Of a stretch of 64,000 nt of DNA, positions 22,734 through 53,514 are shown in pieces (position 1 is the first letter of the stretch; every line of letters starts with the position of its first letter). Under the pieces are notes generated by a model. The model had not been told where the DNA came from and searched no databases. It saw only the letters and a list, made by a program, of their open reading frames with translations. The stretch is from an uncultured Eubacteriales bacterium. GTDB taxonomy: Bacteria; Bacillota_I; Bacilli_A; RF39; UBA660. The translations under genes and the position numbers were made by a program. The stretch lies in contig CAUUHY010000003.1 in NCBI GenBank assembly GCA_963545265.1, positions 25,918-89,917 of the forward strand, given 5' to 3'.

Positions 22734-24116
22734 ATGGAATTAAAATATATTTATGATAATATTCAAAATCCTTTGGATAATAATACTATAAGATACATAT
22801 ATGATAATTATGGATTTGTTCCTACTTATAATATAGTTGTAGGATTAGGTACTAAACCTAATACGAGGTTTGATATTCCTCAAAGAGATAAATATAATAA
22901 AATGTTATTTGATATATGGAAAAATAGTATTTTAAATTTATCTATGGAAAGAATAGAGGAATTAGAAAAAAGATTTCTTTACAAAGATATTAGAAGAATC
23001 AGACATAGATTATCTATGCCATTAGATGAAAAATATAATTTAAATACTACTTTGGGTATATATGATTTTTTAACTGAAGAAAAAATGGATAAAGCTTATT
23101 TTTGTATGCCTGAAAATTTACTTAATCATAGGTTTGTTCATACTATAAGTGAAAAAGTAGATTTATCAGAAGACACTTATTTTGATGTGGAACATAGACT
23201 TTATGTAAATATAGCTAATGAAAACGTTTATAAGTTAGCTCATAAATTAGTAGAGAAGTTTGGTGAAAAAAATCTACCATTTTATTTTAAATTTGAAGAT
23301 TTAAATAATAGAAAAGATGGATTTGTAATATATTCTGATACTAAAAATTTAGCTAAATATTCAGAATGTTTAGATGAAGTATATAGTGAAAATAAAGAAC
23401 TTAGAATGAGTACTTATTCACCATTAATGTTTGGTGGAAGAATAAGTGATTATTATTGTATAGGAGACGAACCAAACATTGAAGATAAAAGTTATTCTTT
23501 TAATACTTTAAGAGCAGAATGTATAGATAATGCGATGACAAGAAGTATTAGAAGATGGATGTATGAAAATCAAGATGTAGATTTAAAAAGAAATGGTAAA
23601 ATAGTTAAATTTAAAGATTATATGACTGATAAAATTGTGGATTTATTAATTAATGATATATATTCAGGAGAAAATAAATATAAAAATTATCATAATTTAC
23701 ATGAAAATGTATTTTCAGCTAGAAATATTGGAGAATTAAAAAAATCTTTAAAAGTTGGAGTAGATGGATATATTAACGGTAAAAAGTTAGAGCCTATGAA
23801 AGTATATGAAAATCCATGGTTAGATGAAGCAAGAGATAAGCCATCTAAATTACAAGGTATATTTAGTATGGGAATAGATCCTACTAAAAATACAAGGCCT
23901 AATTTTTTAGGGTCTGTATCACCTAGTATTATTGATGAACTTATAAAAGTAGAGCTTGGTAGTAAAATCATTCATAGATTTGCAGATTATAGTGGTTATT
24001 TTAAACACTATTTAATAGAAGAATTAAGAAAAAATAATATAGATGTAAATAAGCCATGCTTTAATATTGGGACAGAAGAAAAATTTAATAATCCTGATTA
24101 TTGGCATCAAATATAA
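22734..24116 (+). CDS. hypothetical protein (460 aa) occupying the usual mutL position; not MutL
   Basis: No GHKL ATPase motifs; no signal peptide; start 1 nt after mutS stop. Confidence 0.4.
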   Translation: MELKYIYDNIQNPLDNNTIRYIYDNYGFVPTYNIVVGLGTKPNTRFDIPQRDKYNKMLFDIWKNSILNLSMERIEELEKRFLYKDIRRIRHRLSMPLDEKYNLNTTLGIYDFLTEEKMDKAYFCMPENLLNHRFVHTISEKVDLSEDTYFDVEHRLYVNIANENVYKLAHKLVEKFGEKNLPFYFKFEDLNNRKDGFVIYSDTKNLAKYSECLDEVYSENKELRMSTYSPLMFGGRISDYYCIGDEPNIEDKSYSFNTLRAECIDNAMTRSIRRWMYENQDVDLKRNGKIVKFKDYMTDKIVDLLINDIYSGENKYKNYHNLHENVFSARNIGELKKSLKVGVDGYINGKKLEPMKVYENPWLDEARDKPSKLQGIFSMGIDPTKNTRPNFLGSVSPSIIDELIKVELGSKIIHRFADYSGYFKHYLIEELRKNNIDVNKPCFNIGTEEKFNNPDYWHQI

Positions 24117-24829: not shown

Positions 24830-26746
24830 ATGATAATGAATAAAAAAATTTCAAAGATATTTTTACTTCTTTTAATAACTTTTGTACTAATTTCTAGTTT
24901 AGCAATGTTACTTAAAGAAAAAAATACTAAAATTAATAATAAGCATCTTAAATTAAATTATGAACTTAGTTATGAAGAAGCTTTTCCAGATAAAGAATTT
25001 AGAAGATTAATTTTATCTATGTTATATAAACATTCTGAAGAGAAATGGGGAGAAAGAGAAGATAGAGAAATATATGGGGATCTTTATAGTGCTCTTAAAA
25101 TCACTGGTGATGCAGCAAATTCTGGAATTACAAGTGCTATTACAGATGAGGAATTAGAAAGATATAGTAAACAAAAAATAGATAAAAATTTTTTAGATAA
25201 AGTTCTTGTTTTGCACCCTAATTCAGAAGTTAAAAATTATCAAAATATTATTAATTTAACTGGAATTGAATATTTGAAAAATGTAAAAAGAATAGTAATA
25301 GCTAATTCTAAAATAAAAGAAGCAGATTTTAGTCAAAACCAAAAATTAGAAACTTTATTTTTAACTGAAAAATTTCATTCTACATATCAAATTCTGGACA
25401 TAGAGGGAACTTCAATACTTGAAAGAGTTAATATAAAAAGTAATGAAAATTTGAAACATTTAATTTTAAATTTTAATCCTAATAAAGAAAATACAGTTGA
25501 TTTAAGTGGTAATCCTAATTTAGAAGCTTTATATATAATAAAAAGTAACCTAAAAGAAATAGATTTAACTCATAATCCTAATTTAAATAGTTCTGATATA
25601 AATCTTCAAGGTAATAAACTTCAAAGTATTAAAGCTAACAGTCCTAGTGAAAATTTTAGATATGGAGCGAGTGAACAAAAAATAACTATTGAAGTTGATC
25701 AAGGAGTTCCTATAAAAATACCTTTAAAATTTAATGATACAGAATCTTATTTAGAAGGGACTGGATTTACTAGAGAAAATGACGTATATACTTTTAATCA
25801 AGTAGGAACACATACATATAATTTTTATAATAGACAAAGAGATTATAGTGGTACGGTAGAAGTTACTGTAACTGGAGGGGAAGCAAAAAACTTTACTCCT
25901 TTAATAACTAATGATAGTAGATGTTATGTAAATGAAAGGTGTAGTTTAGCTGATAATATTTATAATATACCAAGAGATGCTAATATAGTATCAGTAACAT
26001 CTTGTGATCATGGAAATGCAACAGGAATAATTTTAGTTCCTAATCAAAAAGGACTAGGAACTTGTGATGTTAAAATTACTTTTGGTGATGGTTCAACGAA
26101 AACATATAAAGTTAAAATACCAGTATTTGAAAAAAATATAAAAGAAATAGAACCATTTAAACCAATTTATCCAAAAAGTAAGTATATAGAAGGAGAATTT
26201 GCAAAAAATTTATTGCTTAGTTATTCTGAAGTACAAAATGAAAGAGATGATTATTTAAATATATTAAATAAAAAATCAAAATGTAATTATGAAACATTTA
26301 TTTGCGATAATATAAGGTATAAAACAGAAGCTTTTTATCGATCTATAGGAGATAAAGCAATTTCTGATAATCCAATACCAGGAAAAGCTTATGATTATTT
26401 TTCAGTAAATAATACAGCTATATTAGATAGTAAAGTTAAAGTATATAATAGTAAACAGATGGAACAAGTTGTTAGAAATTATCCTAATGGATCAAGTCTT
26501 ATAGATTGGCAAGGGGATGAAAATCAAAAAATATTTTATATTTATAATCAGTGGTTAAATGGAGTTCCTAATATATTAGAAACCACAATTCTAAGAGATA
26601 CAGATCATGATGGAATTCCTGATATAGATGATGAAGATGATGATAATGACGGAGTAAGTGATGCACAAGAAGTACTTGATAAAACTGATCCAAAAGATGC
26701 TAGTAGTTTTAAAGTAACAAAAATATGTTACAAAGTTAAAGGATAG
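24830..26746 (+). CDS. LRR/TSP3-motif surface protein, paralog A
   Basis: Signal/TM; LNYELSYEEAFPDKEFRRL motif; LRR block; DTDHDGIPDIDDEDDDNDGVSD; C-terminal about 185 aa identical to paralog B. Confidence 0.55.
   Translation: MIMNKKISKIFLLLLITFVLISSLAMLLKEKNTKINNKHLKLNYELSYEEAFPDKEFRRLILSMLYKHSEEKWGEREDREIYGDLYSALKITGDAANSGITSAITDEELERYSKQKIDKNFLDKVLVLHPNSEVKNYQNIINLTGIEYLKNVKRIVIANSKIKEADFSQNQKLETLFLTEKFHSTYQILDIEGTSILERVNIKSNENLKHLILNFNPNKENTVDLSGNPNLEALYIIKSNLKEIDLTHNPNLNSSDINLQGNKLQSIKANSPSENFRYGASEQKITIEVDQGVPIKIPLKFNDTESYLEGTGFTRENDVYTFNQVGTHTYNFYNRQRDYSGTVEVTVTGGEAKNFTPLITNDSRCYVNERCSLADNIYNIPRDANIVSVTSCDHGNATGIILVPNQKGLGTCDVKITFGDGSTKTYKVKIPVFEKNIKEIEPFKPIYPKSKYIEGEFAKNLLLSYSEVQNERDDYLNILNKKSKCNYETFICDNIRYKTEAFYRSIGDKAISDNPIPGKAYDYFSVNNTAILDSKVKVYNSKQMEQVVRNYPNGSSLIDWQGDENQKIFYIYNQWLNGVPNILETTILRDTDHDGIPDIDDEDDDNDGVSDAQEVLDKTDPKDASSFKVTKICYKVKG
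25958..26479 (+). repeat. 522-bp exact direct repeat, copy 1 (inside paralog A)
   Basis: Identical to 27933..28454 by direct comparison (offset 1975 bp). Confidence 0.8.
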
Positions 26747-26807: not shown

Positions 26808-28736
26808 ATGAAAAGTTCTAAAAAATTGCTAAATTTTATAATAATTTTATTGTTATTTCTAAGTTTTTTAAGTATATTTTTTATAAGTAAAAATAATAAA
26901 ATATTAAAAAAACAAGTTAAACTAAATTATGACAAAACTTACGAACAAGCTTTTCCAGATAAAGAGTTTAGAAGATTAATACTTACAATGCTTTATAAAT
27001 ATAATGAACGTGATTATGGTTTAGAGAGGAAGAGAGAGCATTTTGATACTTTTTATCATGCAATTAAACTTACAGGAGATTTATGGGATGCAGGTATAGA
27101 TAAAGCATTAACTGATGAAGAATTAAATAGATATAGTAAAGATAAGTTAGATAAGAATTTTCTTGAAAAAATAGTGGTAATACATACTAATCCAGATACT
27201 GAAACATATAAAAAAATTGCTGATTTAGCTGGTGTAGAGTATTTGCCAAATTTAGCAGTAGTTGCTATATCTGGTTCTAATATAAAATTAGCGCATTTTA
27301 ATTATAATCCTAAGTTAGAAACTTTATTTTTACCGGAGAGATTTTACCAAAGTCATTTCAAACATTATGTTCAAGGAACTTCTAAATTAGATAATGTAGA
27401 TCTTAGAAACAATAGGAATTTAAGACATCTTATATTAAATTTTGAACCGCATAAAGAAAATACTATAGATTTAAGTGGTAATCCTGATTTAGAAGCTATA
27501 TATATAGAAAGTAGTTCTTTAAAAGAAATAGATCTAACTAATAAAGGAAGATTAATGGATGATAAAAATATAAATTTAGAAAATAATAATCTTCAATTAA
27601 TTAAAGCTGATAAAGCTAATCCAGGATATAAATTTGGTGCAAGTAATCAAAAAATAAAAGTAAATGCTGAAAAAGGAGTTCCTATAAGGATACCATTAAA
27701 AGTAAATAATTATGATGCTTATTTAGAAGGTAGTGGATTTACTAGAGAAAATGACGTATATACATTTAATCAAGTAGGAACACATTATTATAATTTTAAT
27801 GATGATGACAGAGACTATAGTGGTACAGTAGAAGTTAATATAATTGGAGGGGATTCCAAAAATTTTACTCCTTTAATAACTACTAATGATAGTAGATGTT
27901 ATATAAATCAAAGCTGTAGTTTAGCTGATAAAATTTATAATATACCAAGAGATGCTAATATAGTATCAGTAACATCTTGTGATCATGGAAATGCAACAGG
28001 AATAATTTTAGTTCCTAATCAAAAAGGACTAGGAACTTGTGATGTTAAAATTACTTTTGGTGATGGTTCAACGAAAACATATAAAGTTAAAATACCAGTA
28101 TTTGAAAAAAATATAAAAGAAATAGAACCATTTAAACCAATTTATCCAAAAAGTAAGTATATAGAAGGAGAATTTGCAAAAAATTTATTGCTTAGTTATT
28201 CTGAAGTACAAAATGAAAGAGATGATTATTTAAATATATTAAATAAAAAATCAAAATGTAATTATGAAACATTTATTTGCGATAATATAAGGTATAAAAC
28301 AGAAGCTTTTTATCGATCTATAGGAGATAAAGCAATTTCTGATAATCCAATACCAGGAAAAGCTTATGATTATTTTTCAGTAAATAATACAGCTATATTA
28401 GATAGTAAAGTTAAAGTATATAATAGTAAACAGATGGAACAAGTTGTTAGAAATCATGGCAATGGAACTGGTGGAAAATTTATAAATTGGCAAGGTGATG
28501 AAGAAGAAAAAATTTATTATATTTTTCCTATTCAAAGTAATGTAGAAACGCTAGAAAACCCAAAATTTGAAACCACAATTCTAAGAGATACAGATCATGA
28601 TGGAATTCCTGATAAAGATGATGAAGATGATGATAATGATGGAATAAGTGATGCTCAAGAAGTACTTGATCAAACTGATCCAAAAGATGCTAGCAGTTTT
28701 AAAGTAACAAAAATATGTTATAAAGTTAAAGGATAG
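26808..28736 (+). CDS. LRR/TSP3-motif surface protein, paralog B (tandem duplicate)
   Basis: Same architecture as 24830..26746; 522-bp block 100% identical; nearly identical 3' UTR. Confidence 0.55.
   Translation: MKSSKKLLNFIIILLLFLSFLSIFFISKNNKILKKQVKLNYDKTYEQAFPDKEFRRLILTMLYKYNERDYGLERKREHFDTFYHAIKLTGDLWDAGIDKALTDEELNRYSKDKLDKNFLEKIVVIHTNPDTETYKKIADLAGVEYLPNLAVVAISGSNIKLAHFNYNPKLETLFLPERFYQSHFKHYVQGTSKLDNVDLRNNRNLRHLILNFEPHKENTIDLSGNPDLEAIYIESSSLKEIDLTNKGRLMDDKNINLENNNLQLIKADKANPGYKFGASNQKIKVNAEKGVPIRIPLKVNNYDAYLEGSGFTRENDVYTFNQVGTHYYNFNDDDRDYSGTVEVNIIGGDSKNFTPLITTNDSRCYINQSCSLADKIYNIPRDANIVSVTSCDHGNATGIILVPNQKGLGTCDVKITFGDGSTKTYKVKIPVFEKNIKEIEPFKPIYPKSKYIEGEFAKNLLLSYSEVQNERDDYLNILNKKSKCNYETFICDNIRYKTEAFYRSIGDKAISDNPIPGKAYDYFSVNNTAILDSKVKVYNSKQMEQVVRNHGNGTGGKFINWQGDEEEKIYYIFPIQSNVETLENPKFETTILRDTDHDGIPDKDDEDDDNDGISDAQEVLDQTDPKDASSFKVTKICYKVKG
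27933..28454 (+). repeat. 522-bp exact direct repeat, copy 2 (inside paralog B)
   Basis: Identical to 25958..26479. Confidence 0.8.
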
Positions 28737-32785: not shown

Positions 32786-34924
32786 GTGATTAGCATGATG
32801 AGTATTTTAGAATATTCAGTAGATGTAAATTTAGATGTAGAAAAGATATTGGCTTTGTGTGATAGTTTAGGAATAGATTATATAGATGAAAATTCTACAT
32901 TGTCTGATGAAGATATAATATTATTAGATAATAATTTGTCTGAACTAGAAAATATGGACGATGAAGAAGAAAACGAAGATGAAGAAGAAATTTTGGAAAA
33001 TGAAGATGAAGATGAAGAAGAACAATTAGTTGAAAAATTTGGTTCTAGAAAGAAAATAGAAAAGATTAAGACTAAGACTTCAACTAGAGATGATAATAAA
33101 GCTATTTTTCAATCAGAAAAGAAAAACTTATATAAACATAAGAAAAAATTAAAATCTAATGTTATAGGAGAAGATGATAACTTCGTTGTATATAAAGAAG
33201 GTATGACAGTAATGGATATTGCTACAATTATGAAAGTAAATCCAGCTGAACTTATCAAAAAACTTATCTCTCTTGGAGTAATGGCTAATATGAATGCATC
33301 TTTAAGTTATGAAGTAGCTGAAATATTAGTAGCAGATTACAATAAGACTTTAAAGAAAATAGAAGATACTGATATATCTAAATTTGATGAAGATTTTGAA
33401 ATAGCAGATAAAGAAGAAGATTTAGTTGAAAGAGCACCTGTTATAACAATAATGGGACATGTTGATCATGGTAAAACTTCTTTACTTGATGCTATTAGAG
33501 AAAGTAATGTTGTAAGTGGTGAAGCTGGAGGTATAACACAAGCAATATCTTCTTATCAAATAAACTATAAAGGAAAACCAATTACTTTTATAGATACACC
33601 TGGACATGCTGCATTTACTGAAATGAGAGCAAGAGGTGCTAAAGTTACTGATATTATTATCGTTATAGTAGCAGCAGATGATGGAGTTAAACCACAAACA
33701 GAAGAAGCAATAGATCATGCTAAAGCAGCTGGAGTACCAATAATTGTTGCAATTAATAAAATTGATAAACCAGATGCTAATAAAGAAAAAACACTTGAAG
33801 AAGTAGCAAGAGCTGGTCTTCAACCAGAAGTTTGGGGAGGAGATGTAATAGTTAATTACATTTCTGCTAAGACTAAAGAAGGAATTAACGATTTACTTGA
33901 TAATATTTTACTTGTTAGTGAAATGCAAGGATATAAAGCTAATCCTAATAGATATGCTATAGGAACAGTTATCGAAGCATATAAAGATGTTAAGACGGGA
34001 GTAGTAGCAAGTGTCTTAGTACAAAATGGAACACTTAGAATTGGAGATCCTATTTGTTGTGGAACTATTTTCGGAAAAATAAGAAATATGAAAAACGATC
34101 TTGGAGAATCAATAACTGAGGCACTACCTTCAACTCCAGTTGAAATAATAGGTTTATCTGAAGTACCAGATGCTGGAGATAAATTTATGGCATTTGAAAC
34201 AGAAAAACAAGCTAAAGAAGTATCGGATAAGAGAATAGCAAGATTAAAATCAGATGATTTAGGTAAGACTAATATGAGTTTAGATGAATTATTCTCTGCT
34301 ATTAAAAAAGGTGAAAAGAGTCTAAACGTTATCTTAAAAACTGATACTAAAGGATCTTTAGAAGCAATTAAACAAAGTTTAGCTAAGATAAATATCGAAG
34401 GTGTAGAAATCAAGATAGTAAGAGGAAGTGTTGGGGCAATATCTGAAAGTGATATAGTACTTGCAAAAGCTAGTGAAGCTATAGTTATAGGATTTAATGT
34501 AAGACCAAGTAGTAATGTAGTAGAAATAGCTAAGACTAAAGAAGTACAAATTAAACTATATGATATTATCTATAAACTTATAGAAGACTTAGAAAAATCT
34601 ATTTTAGGAAGTCTAGATCCTGAATATGAAGAAGTAGTTATTGGATCAGCTGAAATTTTAGCAGTATTTAAATTCTCTAAAGTTGGTAATATAGCTGGAT
34701 GTAGAGTGTTAGATGGAATTATTAAAAACACATCTAACTGTAGAGTTATAAGAGATGGTGTAGTTATTTATACTGGAAAGATTAAGACTTTACAAAAAGA
34801 AAAAGATCAAATAAAAGAAGTAGCAAAAGGATTCGAATGTGGAATTACTTTAGAAAATTATCAAGATATTAAAGAAAAAGATATTATAGAAGCATACGAA
34901 TTAAAGGAAATTAAAAAGATATGA
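32786..34924 (+). CDS. infB: translation initiation factor IF-2
   Basis: [25 protein letters not shown]-domain motifs; 712 aa. Confidence 0.95.
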
Positions 34925-35241
34925 GTATAGGTTTAAATAGAATTGAAAGTACATTTAAAAAAGAATTATCTTATATACTTGAAAGTGCTAAAAATGATTA
35001 TTTAAGAGCTATGACAATAACTGATATAGATTTAACTAGTCAAAAAGAATATGCTAGAGTTTATTTTATGACTCATAGAAATGTAGAAAAAACTACTAAA
35101 GAAGTAAAGAGATCTATGCCTTATATAAATAAAGTTCTAAGTTCAAAATTAAGTTTAAAAAAATTGCCAAAAATCGTATTTATAGAAGATAATTCTTATG
35201 AATATGGTAAGGAAATAGAAGAGAAACTAAAAAATATTTAG
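34921..35241 (+). CDS. rbfA: ribosome-binding factor A
   Basis: RIESTFKKELSYIL...YARVYF; KH-like RbfA fold; ATGA overlap with infB. Confidence 0.8.
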   Translation: MSIGLNRIESTFKKELSYILESAKNDYLRAMTITDIDLTSQKEYARVYFMTHRNVEKTTKEVKRSMPYINKVLSSKLSLKKLPKIVFIEDNSYEYGKEIEEKLKNI

Positions 35242-35295
35242 TTTCTTTTTTTTTTAATAAATGATATTATGTTATATAGAATAGGGAGAGTAATA

Positions 35296-36549
35296 ATGAA
35301 GAAAAAAGTGTTAGTATTATTTGTATTACTATTATTACCTTTTATTACTTTAGCAGAAGAAGAAAAAAAAGATACGACTTTATCAAATAAAAATTTAATA
35401 GTCGAATGTATATATAGTGATGGTGGATTATATTCTTATGAATATAATGAAGCAGAAGATAAATTTGTAACTAATAGACAAGAATTTTTAGGAGTTGGTA
35501 AGAAAGTTGTTCCTTCTAATATTGTATTTTTATCAGAACTTACATCAAATAATGAATCTCTTACAGTTGTAGATAAAGACTTAACTTGTAAAAGATATAT
35601 TTATAGTGGAGTATCCAGAAGAGAAGATGAAGAAGTAAAGAAAGATAATATTAAAAACATTTATATGTTTGTTAAAGGAAGTAATTCATCAGAAGACTTT
35701 ATGAAAGTGTATGAAGCTAACATAGATAGTTATACAGGAAAATGGTATACAATTGGAATTCCCGTATTTAAAACAGAAATTAGAAAAGCTTTAGAAACTG
35801 CAGTTGTAGAACAAAAAAGATATGAATTAGTAAATCAAAGATATCGTATATTAGATTCTAGTAATATTCAGCCAAAGAAGGTTTGTCACTTTGAATCTAG
35901 CAGTAAAAAAGATACAGTTTCTACTAGAAAAGATATAATAACTGCTAATATATATTCTAATCATACATTTATTAAGACAAGTGATGATTACTATAATTTA
36001 CTTGGAAAAGAAGAAAGTAAAGTTATAAATGATATTTGCAATAATAGAGAAGATGATAGTAAGGTATATCTTAATGATTCTGTTGTATCTGCAACTGGTG
36101 ATTCTAGTGGAGGAGTTAAAATAGCTCCTAAAACATACGATAATAAGAAACAAACATATTTAACTGTTGCACAAAAAGAAAGTAAAGTTAATTTTTTAGA
36201 GTATAAAAAAATCTCTGAAAATAATATGTTAGGAAAAGAAACAGATGATAAACTTTGTGAAACGATTCCAAATGTTGCAAAAATATTAAGAGAAGTTATT
36301 AAGTTTGGAAGATTAGGTATAGGAGCTATAGTAATTATACTTATAGCGATTGATATACTTCACTTTGTATCTAGTTTATCACCTGCAGAACAACTACCTA
36401 TAACAATTAAAAAAATTAGGAATAGAATTATATTATTGGTAGTTATTTTATTGTTACCAATACTTACTAGTGTTCTTGTTACTTTATTAAAAAGTGCAAA
36501 TACTATAGAAACATCAACTATACAAGTTATAGATTGTTTATTTAAATAG
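35296..36549 (+). CDS. secreted protein with two C-terminal TM helices (417 aa), function unknown
   Basis: RBS gggagag; signal peptide KKVLVLFVLLLLPFITLA; several Cys; two terminal hydrophobic helices. Confidence 0.45.
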   Translation: MKKKVLVLFVLLLLPFITLAEEEKKDTTLSNKNLIVECIYSDGGLYSYEYNEAEDKFVTNRQEFLGVGKKVVPSNIVFLSELTSNNESLTVVDKDLTCKRYIYSGVSRREDEEVKKDNIKNIYMFVKGSNSSEDFMKVYEANIDSYTGKWYTIGIPVFKTEIRKALETAVVEQKRYELVNQRYRILDSSNIQPKKVCHFESSSKKDTVSTRKDIITANIYSNHTFIKTSDDYYNLLGKEESKVINDICNNREDDSKVYLNDSVVSATGDSSGGVKIAPKTYDNKKQTYLTVAQKESKVNFLEYKKISENNMLGKETDDKLCETIPNVAKILREVIKFGRLGIGAIVIILIAIDILHFVSSLSPAEQLPITIKKIRNRIILLVVILLLPILTSVLVTLLKSANTIETSTIQVIDCLFK

Positions 36550-36557
36550 GAGAGAAA

Positions 36558-38786
36558 ATGCCAATATTAGATATTTTAAAAACAGTTGATTTTGCACAAC
36601 TTGGTATAGATATAGTTGGACTATTACTTAGTAGATGGTTTATGCTAAATGGTATTATTTATATACTAAGATCTATCAGTTATTTTGTTGATTCTCAATT
36701 TGTAAATTTAATTGGTATGGTATATAAGTACTTTAATTTACTTTTGAAAGGTGAGATGTTTAATGAACAAATAATATCGCAATTATTATCGAGTATATAC
36801 GTATTTATTGGACTTATTATATTCTTTAGATTAGCAACTGTGTTAATTAAATACTTAGTTAATCCAGAAACTATTGAAAGTTCTGTTGATAAAACTGGAT
36901 TATTTTCGGGCCTTGTTAAAAGAATAGTAATAGGTAGTATTATGATAGCTTTAGTACCATTTTTATTTAGTACTTTAAATAAGCTTCAAATAGCTATAGT
37001 AGAAGATAATGTTGTACAAAATATATTTATACAAAATGAAGCTTTTAAACAATTTAATAAACGTCATGCTCAAAATGGAGGACAATATTTAGCTAATTAT
37101 GTTTTAGCTGGTTTTATAAGACCAACAACTAATAGTTCTTCCTCAGTAAAAACGAATTATGAATCTATGAAAAAATCAGCAAATCCAGATTTAATCAACA
37201 TAAATGAAGGAGTAGTACCGGGGATAATTGTTAACTATAGTTATACATATTATTTTATAGTTTCTACATATGTTCTTTTTATGGTATTTAAAATAATGAT
37301 TGGATATGCACTAGATGTTATTACTAGGTTTTTTAAAACTCTTTTATATCAATTAATGGCACCTATTGCTATAGTAGAATATATGGTAAGTGGAGATGGT
37401 GGAATATTTGAAAAGTGGAAAACTAGTGTAATAGCTAATTATTTAGCATTATTTGTTAGAATGTTATCTATTTGGTTTACAATATTTGTACTTTCTTTGA
37501 TGACTGCAGATGGATTACCAAATGGTAACTTATTAAAAACAGATGATGATTTATTAAGAGCAATAATAGTTTTAGCGTTAATAGCGTTTATGAAAGATTT
37601 ACCAAGATATGTTGGAAGCATACTTGGATTTGATTTAGTACAAGAAAGTTCTGCTATGAGTATGGTAAGCGGTGCAGCAACTGCAGTTCTTGGAGCAGCA
37701 GGAGCTGGACTTATGGCTGGAAGTGGAATAATTGGAGGTACTTTAAATAGATTAGGGGGTACTTTAAATAGAAATATTGGAAGTAAAATAGCTGGAGCTA
37801 GAGAAGCTAGTAGAAATGCCATTAATAGAGGAAGAGAGATGGGTCTTACTGGTGACCAATTAAGGCAAGCAAGTAGAAATGCTTTAAGAGATTATGGAAA
37901 TCAACAAGTTGCTGAAAGAAGAAGTAGAGGTAATGCTCTACAAAGAATGAGAACTGCAGCAGCAGAAGGTATAAGAAATAATGCCATTGGAGACTTAAGA
38001 GAGACTGTTGGTGGAATTACAAGTATTGCAGATCAAATAACAGGTCTTCATCAAACAGGAGCTCCAGCTGCAGCACAAAATTTATTTAATAAAATGTTTC
38101 CAGAAGCAAGAAATCAAGGTGGAGGCCAAAATCAAAATCAAGAGCAAAATCCAACTCCAACTCCACCAATTATACCAAGACCTAATAGAGGTAGACATTT
38201 TGATTTACTTAATGAAAGTAATTTAGATAATATACGTGCAACAGGAAATGGTGTTAATAGAGATGAATCTATAGAAAATATGACTGATTTCTTGTTTAGA
38301 GCAGATAATAATCAAGACTATAGTGAATATTTAAGAAATGTACAAAATGATAATAACAATACATCTGATGTTCCAGCTCAAGATAGAAATGTTATTTTAA
38401 CAAGAGCAGGAATTACTGACAATAACGCAACAGTTGTTAGAAATTCTCATACATTAGAAGAAATAGCTAGAAATATATCAAGTAACTCTAATAATACTAT
38501 AAGTTACGAACAAGCTTATGAAACAGCTAGAACATATATTGAAGGAGCAGGTATTCAGGCCCAAAGCAGATATACTGTAACTGATTCTAATGGAGCAGTT
38601 AATACTGTTGATATACCATGTACTGATCAAAATGGAAATTTCTTAAGAACAGGAGAATATACTTTATCAGATACTAATATTGCAGATATTACTAATGATA
38701 TTAGAAATAGATATTGGGGAGAAACAGCTAGAGATTATTTTGATACTAATTTAGAAGAAAATAATGGTGGCGTAAATAGAAAGTAA
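36558..38786 (+). CDS. polytopic membrane protein (742 aa) with G/A/R/Q/N-rich C-terminal region; VirB6/TrbL-like topology, function unknown
   Basis: About 8 TM helices in the first ~370 aa; then a low-complexity segment (GAATAVLGAAGAGLMAGSGIIGGTLNRLGGTLNRN...QGGGQNQNQEQNPTPTPP); locally elevated GC. Confidence 0.5.
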   Translation: MPILDILKTVDFAQLGIDIVGLLLSRWFMLNGIIYILRSISYFVDSQFVNLIGMVYKYFNLLLKGEMFNEQIISQLLSSIYVFIGLIIFFRLATVLIKYLVNPETIESSVDKTGLFSGLVKRIVIGSIMIALVPFLFSTLNKLQIAIVEDNVVQNIFIQNEAFKQFNKRHAQNGGQYLANYVLAGFIRPTTNSSSSVKTNYESMKKSANPDLININEGVVPGIIVNYSYTYYFIVSTYVLFMVFKIMIGYALDVITRFFKTLLYQLMAPIAIVEYMVSGDGGIFEKWKTSVIANYLALFVRMLSIWFTIFVLSLMTADGLPNGNLLKTDDDLLRAIIVLALIAFMKDLPRYVGSILGFDLVQESSAMSMVSGAATAVLGAAGAGLMAGSGIIGGTLNRLGGTLNRNIGSKIAGAREASRNAINRGREMGLTGDQLRQASRNALRDYGNQQVAERRSRGNALQRMRTAAAEGIRNNAIGDLRETVGGITSIADQITGLHQTGAPAAAQNLFNKMFPEARNQGGGQNQNQEQNPTPTPPIIPRPNRGRHFDLLNESNLDNIRATGNGVNRDESIENMTDFLFRADNNQDYSEYLRNVQNDNNNTSDVPAQDRNVILTRAGITDNNATVVRNSHTLEEIARNISSNSNNTISYEQAYETARTYIEGAGIQAQSRYTVTDSNGAVNTVDIPCTDQNGNFLRTGEYTLSDTNIADITNDIRNRYWGETARDYFDTNLEENNGGVNRK

Positions 38787-38800
38787 TTATTTTAATAATA

Positions 38801-38835
38801 AAAAACTATGTAAAGAATTACATAGTTTTTATTTC
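38801..38835 (+). terminator. rho-independent terminator
   Basis: aaaaactatgtaa-agaat-tacatagttttt followed by atttctttg. Confidence 0.65.
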
Positions 38836-38838
38836 TTT

Positions 38839-38866
38839 GTAAAAAAAATATCTCTTTTGAGATATT
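38839..38866 (-). terminator. rho-independent terminator for rpmB (minus strand)
   Basis: aatatctc-tttt-gagatatt stem with an A-run on + (a T-run on -). Confidence 0.55.
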
Positions 38867-39038
38867 AAATTAATCCTAACTTTCTGAATGTTCTTAATTC
38901 TTTTGCACTAATTCTTATTTTAGTTCTATTAATTTTTACAACTTGAAGGTTTAATCCTTGTTTTTTTCTAGTTGCATTTAAAGCATGAGATCTTAAATTT
39001 TTAAAGTTAGGTTTTCTGCTTGTTACATTAATTGCCAT
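38865..39038 (-). CDS. rpmB: 50S ribosomal protein L28 (not in supplied ORF track)
   Basis: Minus-strand translation MAINVTSRKPNFKNLRSHALNATRKKQGLNLQVVKINRTKIRISAKELRTFRKLGLI aligns with B. subtilis L28 ([23 protein letters not shown]...); RBS ggaggca 3-9 nt upstream. Confidence 0.75.
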   Translation of the reverse strand: MAINVTSRKPNFKNLRSHALNATRKKQGLNLQVVKINRTKIRISAKELRTFRKLGLI

Positions 39039-48582: not shown

Positions 48583-51500
48583 ATGTTAGATAATAAAAAA
48601 ATATTTGAAGTTTTAAATATAGATAATGATAAATATATGGATGCTATAAAATTTACAAAAATTAAGCATAAAACTAAAGATAAAATTTTATTAGTTTATA
48701 TAACATCAAAGATAAGATTAGAAATAGATTTTTATCATAAATTAAAAGAAGGATTTAAATCTCTTTTTTTAGTTAATGAAGTAGAAATATTTTTAGAAGT
48801 AGATGATTATAAAGATGATTACTTTAAAGATTATTATGAAGAGTTAATAGAAGATTATAAAGATTTATCTATTTATAGATATTTAAGTAGTATTTATAAA
48901 AAAGATGGAGTTTATAAAATAGATGTAATTAATGAAGTTGAAAAAGAAAAAATAAAAGAAGTAGCAGAGCATTTAAGTGAAGAATTAAAAAAACTTGGTT
49001 ATTTATATGATATAGATGTTTATATTAATGAAGAGAAAAATAAACTTTTAGATAAAGAATTAGAAAAAGAAAGAGAAACTAGTTTAAATAGTGTTAGTTT
49101 TAGTGATAATAAACCTAGTTTTACACCATCTTCTCCTATAATGAGAACTAATTTAAGAGAGATGAAAAACGATTATGAAATAACACCTTTAAATAATTTA
49201 AGAGTAGATCCAAATGCTGACAATATATACTGTGTTAGAGGTATTGTTTTTGAAGTTGAATTTCGTGAAACTAAAAAAGAAAATGATATATATATATCTA
49301 AGATAAACGATGATACAAACTCTTTAGTAATTAAAACATTTGTTAAGAAGTCTGATAAAGAAATGCAAAGTTTTTTAGGAAAATTATTAAAAGTTGGGAA
49401 TAATATATGTGTGAGGGGAGTACTTTCACATGATCCATTTGATAACGGTGAACTTAGCTTAATGTTTAGAGAAATAAAACAAATTGAAATAGTAAAAGAA
49501 GATATAAAAGAAAAAAGAAAATCTAGAGTAGAACTACATGCTCACTCTAAACTTTCTGTTTTAGATTCTTCGATTGATCCTAAAGATTTAGTTAAAAAGG
49601 CATATAAACTTGGACATAGAGGAGTTGCTATAACAGATCACGATGGAGTTTTAGCTTTTCCGGAAGTTTTTAAAGAAGTAAAAGCAATAAATAAGACTTT
49701 AAGTGAAGATGAAAAATTTAAAGGATTATATGGGACAGAATTAGTACTTGTAGATGATTTTGTAGAAATAGTAATAAATCCTAAAAGATATATTAAAAAT
49801 CAAGAATATGTAGTGTTTGATGTTGAAACAACAGGACTTGATGCTAAAGATAAAAATCAAATGATCGAAATAGGTGCTGTTAAGATAAAAGATGGAAAAA
49901 TTATAGATAGATTTGATGAACTTATTTCTTGTTCTTATCCACTTGATGAAAAAATTGTTTCTTTAACTAATATAACTGATGAGATGTTAAAGGGTAAAAG
50001 AAGTGAAGAAGAAGTTGTTAAATCTTTCTTAGAATTTGTCTCTAGTAGTATCTTAGTTGCGCATAATGCTAGATTTGATATGTCGTTTTTAAATTATGCT
50101 ATTGAAAAATATAATTTAAATCCAGTTAAAAATGATATTTTAGATACACTTATCTTATCTAGATATTTAACACCTAATGAAAGATATCATAATTTATCTA
50201 CTGTAACTAAAAGATATGAAGTAAACTTTAGTGAAGATAATCATCATAGAGCAGATTACGATGCAGAAGCTACTGCTTTAGTACTTTTAAAAATGTTTGA
50301 TAAATTAGATGTTGAAACTATAGAAGAGTTAAAGAAGATAAAAGTTCAAGATAAAACTATTATTTTTAAAAATAAAATAGAGATGTTAAATGATACTTTT
50401 GTTGTATTTGATACCGAAACAACAGGTCTTAATGCAGTAAACGATAAACTTATTGAAATAGGTGCAGTTAAGATAAAAAACGGAGTTATTATAGATAGGT
50501 TTGATGAACTTATTGATCCAGGTATTCCAATACCACAAAAGATTACAGAAATTACTACTATTACTGATGAAATGGTAAAGGGAAAAAGAAAAGAAAAAGA
50601 AGTAATTAAAGACTTTATGGACTGGGTTAAAGATTATCCGATGGTTGCTCATAATGCTCATTTTGATGTTTCTTTTATTAAAAATAGTTTAGCTAATAAC
50701 AATTATAAAACAATAGAAAATCCAGTAATTGATACTTTGGTTTTATCAAGATTTTTGGATAATGAAGAAAAAAGACACTCATTATCTGCAATTACAAAAA
50801 GATATGAAATAGAATTTGATGAAGATAATCACCATAGAGCAGATTATGATGCAGAAGGTACAGCTTTAGTGTTTCATAAGATGTTACAAAAAATTGCCCC
50901 AAGAGATATTTTATATTTAGAAGATTTACCAAATATCGTATCAAAAGATGATATACATAAATTTGGTAGAACTTATCATATTAATTTATTAGCTCAAAAT
51001 AGAGAAGGTTTGAAGAACTTATTTAAGATAGTGTCTTTTGCTAATACAAAATACTTTTATAAAGGTGAAGCTAGAATACTTAGAAGTGTTTTAGAATCTT
51101 TAAGAGAAAATATTTTAGTATCTTCTGGATGTTATCAATCTGAAATATTTGTTGAATCTAGATATGTATCAGAAAACGAACTTGATACAATGATTGATTT
51201 TTATGATTATGTCGAGGTTCAACCTCCAGTTTGTTATTCACAGTTAATTGATTCTGGAGATTTTAACTCTATAGAAGAAATAGAAGAAAAAATTAAATAT
51301 ATTATCGAAAGAGTTAAAGCAAGAGGAAAAATAATCGTTGCAACTGGAGATGTACATACTTTAAATAAAGATGATGAAATATATAGAAAAATCTTAATTA
51401 ATCAAAAAGTACCAGGTGGTGGACGACATCCATTAAATAGAAATAATATTAAAAATATACCTAATACTTACTTTAGAACTACTGAAGAGATGTTAGAAGA

Positions 51501-53514
51501 CTTTAGCTTTTTAGATGAGAAATTAAGAGAAGAAATAGTAGTAGATAATAGTTTGAAAATATTAGATTTATGTGAAAACATCGAAGTAATTATCGATACT
51601 AAAGGAATACCTTTTTCTCCTAAGATAAAAGATAGTGATAAAGAAACTAAGAGAATAGTTTATGAAAAAGCTCATGAACTTTATGGAGAAAATTTACCAG
51701 GGTATGTAGAAAATAGAATAGAAGAAGAACTAAAAGGTATAATAGGTGGAGGATTTGATGTTATTTATTTAATAGCACAAAAACTCGTTAAGAAAAGTAA
51801 TGATGATGGTTATGTAGTTGGATCTAGAGGTAGTGTTGGATCTAGTTTTGTTGCAACTATGATGGGTATTACAGAAGTTAATCCTTTAAAAGCACATTAT
51901 CTATGTCCAAATTGTAAACATTCAATATTTGAAATAGATGGAAAAAGTATATCGGAAGATTATTCTTCAGGTTATGATTTACCAGAGAAAAAATGTCCTA
52001 AATGTGATACTTTAATGAAAGGTGAAGGTCAAGATATGCCTTTTGCTACATTCTTAGGATTTAATGCCGATAAAGTACCAGATATAGATTTAAACTTTTC
52101 AGGAGATTATCAATCTCATGCTCATGACTATACAAAAGTACTTTTTGGTGAAGATAAAGTATTTAGAGCAGGAACTGTTGGAACAGCTGCAGAAAAAACA
52201 GCATTTGGTTATGTAAAAGCATATCTTGAAGAAAAAGGTATAAGTAACTTTAGAAAAGCTGAAATAGAAAGAATCGCTAAGAAGTTAGTAGGTGTTAAAA
52301 GAACAACAGGTCAACACCCTGGAGGAATAGTCGTAGTACCTGATTATATGGATATCTTTGATTTTACTCCATATCAGTATCCAGCTAACGAAAAAGGTGA
52401 ATGGTTTACAACTCACTTTGATTATCATGCAATTGATGAATGTCTATTAAAACTAGATATACTTGGACACGATGATCCTACGATGATAAAAATGTTAGAA
52501 GACTTATCTGGTCTTGATATAAAAAAGATTAATGTAGGAGATGAAAAAATACTATCTTTATTTTCATCTACTGAAGTAATGGGTGTAACTCCAGAACAAA
52601 TCGGTTGTAAAATAGGAACGCTAGGTCTTCCAGAACTTGGAACTGACTTTGTAATAAATATGTTACTTGAAACTAAACCAAAAACATTTTCAGAACTTGT
52701 TAAAATATCAGGTTTATCTCATGGAACTGATGTATGGAATAACAATGCTCAAGATTTAGTTAAAGCTGGTATTGAATTTAAAAACATTATTGGATGTAGG
52801 GATGACATAATGGTTAATCTTATAAGTTATGGAGTAGAACCTTTAAAAGCATTTAAGATAATGGAGTTTGTTAGAAAAGGTAAACCAAGTAAAGAAAAAG
52901 AACAGTGGTTAGAATATGCAGAAGTTATGAAAGCACATAACGTACCAGAATGGTATATAGAATCTTGTCATAAAATTAAGTATATGTTTCCTAAAGCTCA
53001 TGCTTGTGCTTATGTATTAAGTGCACTTAGAATTGCGTATTTTAAAGTTTATTATCCAATATATTACTATGCAGCATACTTTTCTATTAGAGAACATGAC
53101 TTTGATGTTTATGCTATGGTAAACGGATATGATAAGATAAACGAAACTATTTCTTTATTAGAAGAAAAAGGATATTCTAGATCAAATAAAGAAGATAGTG
53201 TATTAGGTTGCTTAAAAGTAGTAAGAGAAGCAAGTAGTAGAGGTATAAAATTCTTAGTACCAAGAGTTAACGAAAGTTATGCTAAGAAGTTTAAAGTAAT
53301 AGATGATAAAACTTTATTACTTCCATTTATTGCAATGGATGGTCTAGGAGAAGTAGTAGCGGAAAATATCGTTAAAGAAAGAAATGTAAAAGAATATAGT
53401 AATATTGAAGAATTTGAAAAAAGAGGTAAAATATCAAATACTCTTATTAAAGAAATGAGACTTTTAAATATGTTTGATGGAATGGATGAGTCTAGTCAAC
53501 TTAGTTTATTTTAG
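48583..53514 (+). CDS. polC: DNA polymerase III PolC-type, with tandemly duplicated 3'-5' exonuclease domain
   Basis: PHP (HAHSKLSVLDS..ITDHDGV), two DEDDh exo modules (FDVETTGL...HNARFD...HHRADYDA and FDTETTGL...HNAHFD...HHRADYDA), zinc module CPNC...CPKC, polymerase core; 1643 aa versus about 1440 typical. Confidence 0.95.
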   Translation: MLDNKKIFEVLNIDNDKYMDAIKFTKIKHKTKDKILLVYITSKIRLEIDFYHKLKEGFKSLFLVNEVEIFLEVDDYKDDYFKDYYEELIEDYKDLSIYRYLSSIYKKDGVYKIDVINEVEKEKIKEVAEHLSEELKKLGYLYDIDVYINEEKNKLLDKELEKERETSLNSVSFSDNKPSFTPSSPIMRTNLREMKNDYEITPLNNLRVDPNADNIYCVRGIVFEVEFRETKKENDIYISKINDDTNSLVIKTFVKKSDKEMQSFLGKLLKVGNNICVRGVLSHDPFDNGELSLMFREIKQIEIVKEDIKEKRKSRVELHAHSKLSVLDSSIDPKDLVKKAYKLGHRGVAITDHDGVLAFPEVFKEVKAINKTLSEDEKFKGLYGTELVLVDDFVEIVINPKRYIKNQEYVVFDVETTGLDAKDKNQMIEIGAVKIKDGKIIDRFDELISCSYPLDEKIVSLTNITDEMLKGKRSEEEVVKSFLEFVSSSILVAHNARFDMSFLNYAIEKYNLNPVKNDILDTLILSRYLTPNERYHNLSTVTKRYEVNFSEDNHHRADYDAEATALVLLKMFDKLDVETIEELKKIKVQDKTIIFKNKIEMLNDTFVVFDTETTGLNAVNDKLIEIGAVKIKNGVIIDRFDELIDPGIPIPQKITEITTITDEMVKGKRKEKEVIKDFMDWVKDYPMVAHNAHFDVSFIKNSLANNNYKTIENPVIDTLVLSRFLDNEEKRHSLSAITKRYEIEFDEDNHHRADYDAEGTALVFHKMLQKIAPRDILYLEDLPNIVSKDDIHKFGRTYHINLLAQNREGLKNLFKIVSFANTKYFYKGEARILRSVLESLRENILVSSGCYQSEIFVESRYVSENELDTMIDFYDYVEVQPPVCYSQLIDSGDFNSIEEIEEKIKYIIERVKARGKIIVATGDVHTLNKDDEIYRKILINQKVPGGGRHPLNRNNIKNIPNTYFRTTEEMLEDFSFLDEKLREEIVVDNSLKILDLCENIEVIIDTKGIPFSPKIKDSDKETKRIVYEKAHELYGENLPGYVENRIEEELKGIIGGGFDVIYLIAQKLVKKSNDDGYVVGSRGSVGSSFVATMMGITEVNPLKAHYLCPNCKHSIFEIDGKSISEDYSSGYDLPEKKCPKCDTLMKGEGQDMPFATFLGFNADKVPDIDLNFSGDYQSHAHDYTKVLFGEDKVFRAGTVGTAAEKTAFGYVKAYLEEKGISNFRKAEIERIAKKLVGVKRTTGQHPGGIVVVPDYMDIFDFTPYQYPANEKGEWFTTHFDYHAIDECLLKLDILGHDDPTMIKMLEDLSGLDIKKINVGDEKILSLFSSTEVMGVTPEQIGCKIGTLGLPELGTDFVINMLLETKPKTFSELVKISGLSHGTDVWNNNAQDLVKAGIEFKNIIGCRDDIMVNLISYGVEPLKAFKIMEFVRKGKPSKEKEQWLEYAEVMKAHNVPEWYIESCHKIKYMFPKAHACAYVLSALRIAYFKVYYPIYYYAAYFSIREHDFDVYAMVNGYDKINETISLLEEKGYSRSNKEDSVLGCLKVVREASSRGIKFLVPRVNESYAKKFKVIDDKTLLLPFIAMDGLGEVVAENIVKERNVKEYSNIEEFEKRGKISNTLIKEMRLLNMFDGMDESSQLSLF

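Follow-up and report, generated by a model that had tools for sequence, protein, structure and literature searches.

Components of type IV secretion systems (T4SSs) have nearly always been investigated in the context of the whole machine. In the R388 machine VirB2 docks on VirB6, in the Agrobacterium and RP4 systems VirB2 is cyclised, in the Rickettsiales VirB6 has proliferated, and VirB6-like proteins are specificity determinants of exclusion. The VirB6/TrbL family (PF04610, TrbL; PF19597, TrbL_4) includes PrgH of pCF10, ConG of ICEBs1, TcpH of pCW3 and TrwI of R388, the last of which has been solved. CDS16, an eight-helix protein, has been named as the VirB6-like constituent of the integrative and conjugative elements (ICEs) of mycoplasmas (PMC12857230). 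Gram-positive T4SSs are stated to lack VirB2 homologues, and the variable pilin arrays of Patescibacteria are of unclear origin (PMC12102498). Here we describe a two-gene cassette, situated among housekeeping genes, that encodes a protein with a VirB2-type, pilin-like hairpin (gene 1) and a VirB6/TrbL-like membrane protein (gene 2). It lies in a 64,000-nucleotide stretch, called the window below, from an uncultured Eubacteriales bacterium (GTDB lineage Bacteria; Bacillota_I; Bacilli_A; RF39; UBA660; assembly GCA_963545265.1, contig CAUUHY010000003.1, positions 25,918 to 89,917).

Gene 2 resembles the VirB6/TrbL family in its polytopic N-terminal membrane domain of at least five transmembrane (TM) segments and its large extracytoplasmic loop, and it has a variable C-terminal extension like those of PrgH, TcpH and ConG. 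Its relatives reach TrbL_4 and TrbL, its best, though modest, fold matches are to TrwI, and a pilin-like partner gene is found directly upstream, as in its T4SS-linked relatives. Unlike members of that family it has no adjacent gene for VirB3, VirB4, VirD4, a hydrolase or a relaxase, it is placed in a housekeeping neighbourhood, it carries an extra N-terminal segment of ~35 aa, and it scores below every curated threshold. Gene 1 shares with the VirB2-type pilins (PF18895, T4SS_pilin; PF04956, TrbC/VirB2), including the variable arrays of Patescibacteria (PMC12102498), a location beside VirB6, high variability, and a two-helix hairpin with a basic loop that is predicted to be cytoplasmic. However, those pilins are ~70-130 aa long, whereas the hairpin of gene 1 is the C-terminal anchor of a far longer protein with a ~300-aa ectodomain; two invariant Cys flank it, and polymerisation is not indicated.

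On balance, we lean towards the view that the cassette is a functional, vertically inherited, stand-alone "pilin plus VirB6" sub-module, derived from a monoderm T4SS and exapted as a variable surface-display or contact complex. Both parts are homologous to T4SS components and are ancestrally adjacent in T4SS clusters; the closest subfamily has lost the linkage to VirB3 and VirB4, and the pair is under purifying selection and diverges between strains. Of the T4SS gene order this subfamily appears to have retained only the first two genes, those for the ectodomain-hairpin protein and the VirB6-like protein. The pair descends from VirB6 and VirB2-type components, yet fails the thresholds of the curated profiles and the genomic linkage that defines such components, and it is therefore not filed here as an ordinary T4SS component. 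No earlier description of a conserved, stand-alone pair of a pilin fusion and a VirB6-like protein in Bacillota was found in a limited full-text search, and to our knowledge there is none.

For both proteins, searches of Pfam, PHROGs and PDB sequences gave nothing usable, and word-indexed homologue searches returned only 8, 8 and 14 proteins. It was an exhaustive hidden Markov model (HMM) search of 1.8 billion proteins, with a profile of the gene 2 membrane domain (alignment A2), that revealed the size of the family: 3,589 cluster representatives passed E ≤ 1e-3, and for 777 of these the match was at E ≤ 1e-30. TrbL_4 was matched by 18 of 73 sampled relatives (E ≤ 1e-3, best 4.7e-12) and TrbL by two, and no other coherent family was found among the 73. 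One relative, P0070, matched the window profile at E 8e-51 and exceeds the gathering cut-off of TrbL_4 (32.4 bits, cut-off 27); the VirB6/TrbL membership of the window protein is transitive only. In addition, residues 1-372 were modelled with AlphaFold 2 (AF2) as a bundle of helices (predicted local distance difference test, pLDDT, 77), and when this model was searched against PDB folds the top three and most of the top 14 matches were TrwI/VirB6 chains of R388 (probability up to 0.99). Sequence and model together lead us to regard the membrane domain as a diverged homologue of VirB6/TrbL, in agreement with the guess made in a first-pass annotation of this DNA. The same annotation had also considered type VII secretion and EsaA, for which neither protein found profile support in Pfam or NCBIfam.

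Hydropathy analysis of gene 2 gave five strong TM segments (residues 19-37, 79-97, 119-137, 234-252 and 296-314), up to three weaker ones (at approximately 262-278, 331-346 and 366-395) and a large extracytoplasmic loop of 96 aa (138-233). The polytopic N-terminus and low-complexity tail noted in the first-pass annotation thus hold, but its count of about eight helices is better given as five to eight. The tail, enriched in N, A, G and R beyond residue ~370, consists of a Gly/Ala-rich stretch followed by an Arg/Asn-rich region of low complexity; it cannot be aligned between clades, and its C-terminal part is conserved only in close relatives.

The best direct profile matches of gene 2 were to membrane proteins of mycoplasma ICEs, namely NF045848 (MMCAP2_0566; E 1.2e-10 over profile positions 19-318 of 322; 41.2 bits, cut-off 90) and NF045889 (Mbov_0396; 19.8 bits, cut-off 70). 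These NCBIfam families were matched by 7 to 8 of 10 gene 2 family members, with best E-values of 6.4e-12 and 1e-9, and like the mycoplasma hosts the bacterium studied here is of the low-GC Bacillota/Mollicutes type. On the other hand, gene 2 is far below both cut-offs, the pair is located outside any ICE, and the host is walled (alr, FemAB, YfhO).

The product of gene 1 starts with a Sec-type signal (residues 1-20, MKKKVLVLFVLLLLPFITLA, followed by EEE) without a lipobox and contains six Cys (residues 38, 98, 197, 248, 321 and 414) and two C-terminal hydrophobic helices (at approximately 340-358 and 375-397). Its ATG is preceded by a GGGAGAG ribosome-binding site; an alternative, longer open reading frame (ORF) from 35269 is less likely. 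Between signal and helices lies an ectodomain (residues ~21-316) that contains Cys and is predicted to be beta-rich. A full-length alignment was possible only within the close subfamily (alignment A3), where an "ECxY" motif follows the signal peptide and a C-terminal domain of ~100 aa is conserved. In alignment A6 this domain runs from one invariant Cys through an amphipathic stretch and TM1, which ends in Asp, to a loop rich in Lys; then come an invariant Arg, TM2 (containing Phe and Pro), a short tail and another invariant Cys. The positive-inside rule predicts a cytoplasmic hairpin loop, which would place both invariant Cys outside, and a disulfide stapling the hairpin is thus plausible.

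When a profile of gene 1 was run on T4SS loci it picked only two kinds of protein: small, domain-only proteins of 111-137 aa, and proteins of 334-772 aa encoded directly upstream of the VirB6-like gene. The C-terminal hairpin of gene 1, whose two helices had not been recognised as a VirB2-type pilin-like domain in the first-pass annotation, is by this sequence comparison homologous to the small pilin-like proteins of the T4SS clusters that hold relatives of gene 2. Six of 13 family members matched Pfam T4SS_pilin (PF18895) below threshold (best E 2.6e-4, cut-off 26.6 bits), although the C-terminus of gene 1 from the window gave no PF18895 match in the Pfam scan, and one member matched T4SS_CagC (E 0.03), CagC being the VirB2 homologue of Helicobacter. 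A signal peptide, a two-TM hairpin and a basic loop are present in gene 1, with 300 residues of ectodomain between signal and hairpin. Searched against PDB sequences, a profile of the pilin-like domain gave only spurious matches to TM segments of G-protein-coupled receptors (GPCRs) and FliQ. The domain-only proteins (Cys-TM1-Lys loop-Arg-TM2-Cys) were observed at L010 (139-474), L013 (5914-6300) and L019 (5611-6024), all in full T4SS clusters on contigs with 27-28% GC.

The relatives of the pair occur in two kinds of neighbourhood, as judged from the 64-kb window and, in the other genomes, from flanks of at most 10 kb per side. All four relatives examined with a profile E of ~1e-41 or weaker (P0070, P0075, P0108 and P0161) are T4SS-linked, and the genes there follow the order small pilin-like protein, one to three ectodomain-pilin fusions, VirB6-like protein, VirB3-like protein of ~100 aa and split VirB4. 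The split VirB4 is composed of a TraC-like part and a P-loop_TraG/DUF87 part, the one VirB3-like protein tested (L010) matched PrgI weakly, and the longer contigs additionally carry VirD4 and a cell-wall hydrolase (CHAP/NlpC or lysozyme/M23). In a genome that carries the GerQ spore gene, one such cluster (L019 1-22268), with a 1020-aa VirB6-like protein, is located downstream of secG-rnr-smpB at a distance of a few kb and could represent an ICE integrated close to the tmRNA region.

By contrast, every relative examined at E ≤ 1e-60 is a bare pair among housekeeping genes, with an upstream partner that bears the pilin-like domain. The bare pair follows rbfA in the window and four close genomes (77-97% identity). 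In more distant lineages, at least four in number, its place is between topA and polA, two of these lineages having two tandem pairs, and it is located after hisS-aspS and after ksgA-yabG-veg-whiA in others. The N-terminal extension of ~35 aa is distinct to the VirB6-like protein of this subfamily. The pair was present in every relative examined and is kept as a pair down to ~20-30% identity; the tandem pairs are only ~20-27% identical to each other, yet intact. In one topA-polA locus an ISL3-family transposase in two ORFs was observed between the tandem pairs (L011 7378-8336). At the topA-type loci the pair is adjoined by a single-pass membrane protein of ~310 aa (L001 4293-5231; L014 872-1795; L015 3414-4340), which is a possible third component. 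Its copies at L001 and L014 are homologues (E 4e-19), that at L015 is of similar architecture, a "YKD" motif is common to them, and no homologue of this protein was found in the window.

The first-pass annotation had stated that no VirB4, VirD4 or relaxase gene is nearby, and this was confirmed: none was detected among window ORFs of ≥ 100 aa by a Pfam scan, and phmmer searches with T4SS proteins returned no T4SS homologue among window ORFs of ≥ 50 aa. Likewise, no TraE/VirB4, TraG/VirD4, DDE transposase, integrase or relaxase was found in the window. Homologues of the other genes of the T4SS clusters were not found in the flanks (up to 10 kb) of the bare-pair loci L001-L009, L011, L012 and L014, and none was seen near L015 and L016 either. 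No paralogues of the cassette proteins were found elsewhere in the window.

Genes identical at the protein level to those of the window are present on 121 and 114 public contigs, annotated at the source as "membrane protein" or "hypothetical protein". The relatives come from metagenome-assembled genomes of gut origin (goat, rabbit and other samples) that are labelled only as Bacilli, Clostridiales or Eubacteriales. Universal, syntenic homologues with a housekeeping function had been considered in the first-pass annotation as a finding that would speak against its view; synteny is indeed kept within the close clade and homologues are widespread across the lineage, and none of them has an assigned function. 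A phage origin was rejected, as neither PHROGs nor the IMG/VR viral contigs, searched with two conserved-peptide patterns, yielded a relative.

Selection on the cassette was assessed from the ratio of nonsynonymous to synonymous substitution rates (dN/dS) against three relatives. The ratio was 0.22-0.28 for gene 1, 0.13-0.18 for the membrane domain of gene 2 and 0.26-0.50 for its tail, as compared with the tighter values of 0.06-0.13 for infB and nusA. The cassette genes are thus maintained, though under weaker constraint than infB and nusA. Against L006, a near-identical strain, nusA-rbfA and dnaE are 97% identical at the DNA level, whereas gene 1 and gene 2 are 81.7% and 85.4% identical, the same level as to genomes with flanks that are just ~90% identical. 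The drop in identity starts at the end of rbfA, and dS is 0.37-0.53 in the cassette and 0.08-0.14 in the flanks. The raised dS and the drop in identity point to old allelic lineages, or allele replacement by recombination, and not to mere relaxed constraint. The first-pass annotation had missed that, between near-identical strains, the cassette diverges more than any other aligned segment.

Gene content also varies between strains in the region from gene 2 to dnaE. A 1610-aa protein, in which helical modules are repeated and a weak HD domain (E 1e-3) lies at the C-terminus, is encoded directly downstream of rpmB in the window and is present in L002-L004, but is missing between cassette and dnaE in L005 and L006. 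A family-2 glycosyltransferase of 507 aa is found between gene 2 and rpmB in L002-L004 (12381-13904) and not in the window, and at its position L005 has two shorter ORFs (296 and 197 aa) that may be its fragments.

In the mechanism that we propose, gene 1 would be exported via Sec and anchored in the membrane by its VirB2-like hairpin, which would probably be stapled by a disulfide of the two invariant extracytoplasmic Cys, a possible analogue of the cyclisation of VirB2. The hairpin would dock on an oligomeric gene 2 platform, in the manner known for VirB2 and VirB6 of R388, and the complex would display the fast-evolving ectodomain at the cell surface for adhesion or cell-cell recognition, with no neighbouring VirB4 to polymerise a pilus. 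For the tail of gene 2, which is Arg-rich and positively charged, a cytoplasmic location is probable. In a more specific form of this scenario, which we regard with some doubt, the pilin-VirB6 "stalk base" of a conjugation machine would have been taken over by walled low-GC gut Bacilli as a surface organelle that varies between strains and needs no ATPase, in which the VirB6-like oligomer would hold pilin-anchored ectodomains for host or inter-bacterial recognition, or would serve as a gate for an incoming T4SS.

Several points weigh against a stand-alone surface complex. VirB4 may be encoded elsewhere in the genome, given the 64-kb window and the flanks of at most 10 kb, and docking, the disulfide, surface display and the topology of the tail are steps that we infer. 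Both window proteins score below every curated threshold and neither has a Pfam match (for gene 2 none at E ≤ 1); the fold match of gene 2 is modest (E 0.04 at best, range 0.04-1; TM-score 0.26-0.51). The pilin assignment is based on the sub-threshold Pfam matches, and the local HMM E-values for the gene 1 domain derive from a small, TM-rich sequence database. The AF2 model of gene 1 is poor (pLDDT 56, from an alignment of 11 sequences), and its Foldseek search against the PDB gave meaningless matches only. Furthermore, the mutS-HopA1 region is also diverged from L006 (89% identity), so that the cassette is the most diverged of the aligned segments rather than a unique island.

A different function would follow if the pair were the channel and the pilin of a working chromosomal T4SS moving DNA or proteins, with VirB3 and VirB4 (perhaps also VirD4/VirB11) encoded elsewhere, as in the rvh loci of the Rickettsiales. 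Both parts are after all homologous to T4SS components, and only a small part of each genome was inspected. Like the cassette, rvh is chromosomal and vertically inherited; its VirB6-like genes are duplicated in tandem with long, divergent C-terminal extensions, of which the tandem pairs with their extended, variable tails are reminiscent, and its machine parts are dispersed in the genome, with VirB4, VirB8-11 and VirD4 kept elsewhere. T4SSs without a relaxase have also been co-opted for other uses in the reduced-genome Patescibacteria (PMC12102498). However, in the T4SS-linked relatives the VirB6-like gene is in each of the four cases immediately followed by VirB3-like and VirB4 genes, and it is exactly this linkage that is broken in every bare-pair locus examined, neither the flanks of up to 10 kb per side nor the 64-kb window having yielded any of the genes in question. 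The ~35-aa extension of the bare-pair subfamily suggests a changed role, and the rvh hosts are diderm and have no fused pilin-ectodomain partner, whereas the host of the cassette is monoderm and gene 1 is such a fusion. We hold a split system, the main rival, to be rather unlikely. Still more improbable is a recipient-side or exclusion role, in which the pair would block or receive the incoming T4SS of related elements and its alleles would be specificity groups (cf. ConG/YddJ of ICEBs1 and TraG/Eex). The concentration of between-strain divergence on the cassette and the occurrence of related T4SS elements in organisms of similarly low GC would be in line with it, but known exclusion proteins are small and encoded by the element instead of being chromosomal VirB6 homologues, and exclusion requires neither a full VirB6-like domain nor a pilin-like partner.

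The suggestion in the first-pass annotation that the cassette is a remnant of an integrated element, here a decaying ICE, is largely refuted and retains very little probability. The genes do descend from T4SS genes, the rest of the machine is not nearby, and the position of the pair differs between clades. Against decay, no relative has a broken ORF, not even where tandem paralogues share just 20-27% identity, dN/dS is 0.13-0.30, the exact proteins occur on more than 100 contigs, and the pair is kept in at least four housekeeping neighbourhoods. No integrase or relaxase was found, the GC content is not anomalous, only imperfect repeats at chance level and no convincing att-like ones surround the cassette, and the closest tRNAs are 23 kb away. 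An envelope pair unrelated to T4SSs, with the VirB6 and pilin similarity being an artefact of hydrophobic composition, is the explanation to which we give the least credence. It would account for the failure of the window proteins to pass any curated threshold, and TM-rich profiles do give spurious matches such as those to GPCRs, but it is already contradicted by the strong homology chain (P0070 at E 8e-51, then above the TrbL_4 gathering threshold), by relatives in unmistakable T4SS clusters with the expected gene order, and by VirB6 as the specific top fold match.

If real, the stand-alone sub-module would amount to a minimal structure that derives from a T4SS but does not serve secretion. 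A pair kept under purifying selection, duplicated, and present in at least four housekeeping neighbourhoods and a broad set of gut bacteria would show that these two components form an independently useful unit of the T4SS, and the VirB2-VirB6 contact that the R388 structure shows can be studied on the pair as a natural minimal system. The strain-level divergence marks the cassette as a likely surface determinant of an abundant uncultured gut organism. The small pilin-like proteins of the low-GC T4SS clusters bear on the origin of the Patescibacteria pilin arrays and, if VirB2-like, run counter to the usual statement that Gram-positive-type T4SSs lack such proteins (PMC12102498).

The positions of the cassette, its boundaries and other features of the window are listed in the table.

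Table. Features of the cassette and of the remaining window (positions in the window; empty cells, no entry).
Feature	Position	Strand	Remarks
rbfA	34921-35241		upstream of gene 1; TIGR00082, above cut-off
Terminator-like hairpin and U-run	35212..35256	+	overlaps rbfA stop codon; -13.9 kcal/mol, z = -4.74, 0/200 shuffles equal; also found as inverted repeat
Promoter-like site (TTAATA, 17 nt, TAGAAT)	35254..35282	+	matches consensus at 9/12 positions; in 54-nt spacer 5' of gene 1
Gene 1	35296..36549	+	417 aa; ATG at 35296
Gene 1, pilin-like hairpin domain	36244-36546	+	aa ~317-417; Cys321-TM1-Lys-rich loop-Arg377-TM2-Cys414
Gene 2	36558..38786	+	742 aa; begins 8 nt past gene 1 stop (gap 36550-36557)
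Gene 2, VirB6/TrbL-like membrane domain	36558..37652	+	aa 1-365; N-terminal, polytopic
Gene 2, C-terminal tail and stop codon	37653..38786	+	aa 366-742; no Pfam match
Intrinsic terminator of cassette	38801..38836	+	AT-rich 13-bp hairpin (38801-38830), then U-run; RNA fold -12 kcal/mol, z = -4.87, 0/200 shuffles equal
rpmB	38865-39038	-	convergent; 57 aa; L28, E 2e-6; own hairpin
1610-aa protein	39269-44101	+	
dnaE	44849-47710		
PolC	48583-53514	+	1643 aa
Thrombospondin-repeat proteins	14926-17796, 24830-26746, 26808-28736	+	
HopA1-family protein	22734-24116	+	460 aa
FemAB gene	62267-63565		
WXG100-like ORF	63650-63955	+	101 aa; at window edge

The anatomy of the cassette given in the first-pass annotation, with its coordinates, the secreted and the polytopic protein and the short gap between them, proved correct on re-analysis, as did the strong terminator at its end and the convergent rpmB. 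A consensus scanner overlooked this terminator because its stem is AT-rich. The statement that the operon runs straight into the cassette, by contrast, was not upheld. A hairpin and U-run is located at the rbfA stop codon and is followed by a promoter-like site, and the cassette is therefore probably not simply the tail of the rbfA operon and may have its own promoter, though promoter-like consensus matches are no commoner here than in shuffled sequence and are thus weak evidence. In the first-pass annotation truB-ribF-rpsO-pnp were the genes to be expected behind rbfA, and the absence of truB there had been taken as a sign of insertion. In a related genome truB was located after polA-mutM, so that the lineage may simply not have the gene order of B. 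subtilis, and the absence is no evidence of insertion.

The window as a whole has ~24% GC, uses the standard bacterial code and has the ordinary chromosomal gene content of a Bacillota monoderm with a cell wall. The housekeeping genes comprise alr, YfhO and glycosyltransferases, ftsA-ftsZ and mutS, rimP-nusA-ylxR-infB-rbfA, dnaE, polC, dnaG and sigA, and FemAB.

Other potential surface or secretion genes were also observed. In each of three large, secreted-looking proteins a bacterial thrombospondin type-3 repeat occurs close to the C-terminus (E 3e-6 to 9e-5); the three may form a paralogous surface-protein family. The HopA1 effector-family match (E 4e-8) is encoded directly after mutS, in the same place as in L002-L004. 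The WXG100-like ORF after the FemAB gene (E 5e-5, just below cut-off) lies 25 kb from the cassette and has nothing to do with the pair; past the window edge a type VII secretion locus may start. PolC is unusually long, with two matched stretches of the RNase_T exonuclease domain, and is encoded near dnaE, with one 270-aa ORF of unassigned function between them.

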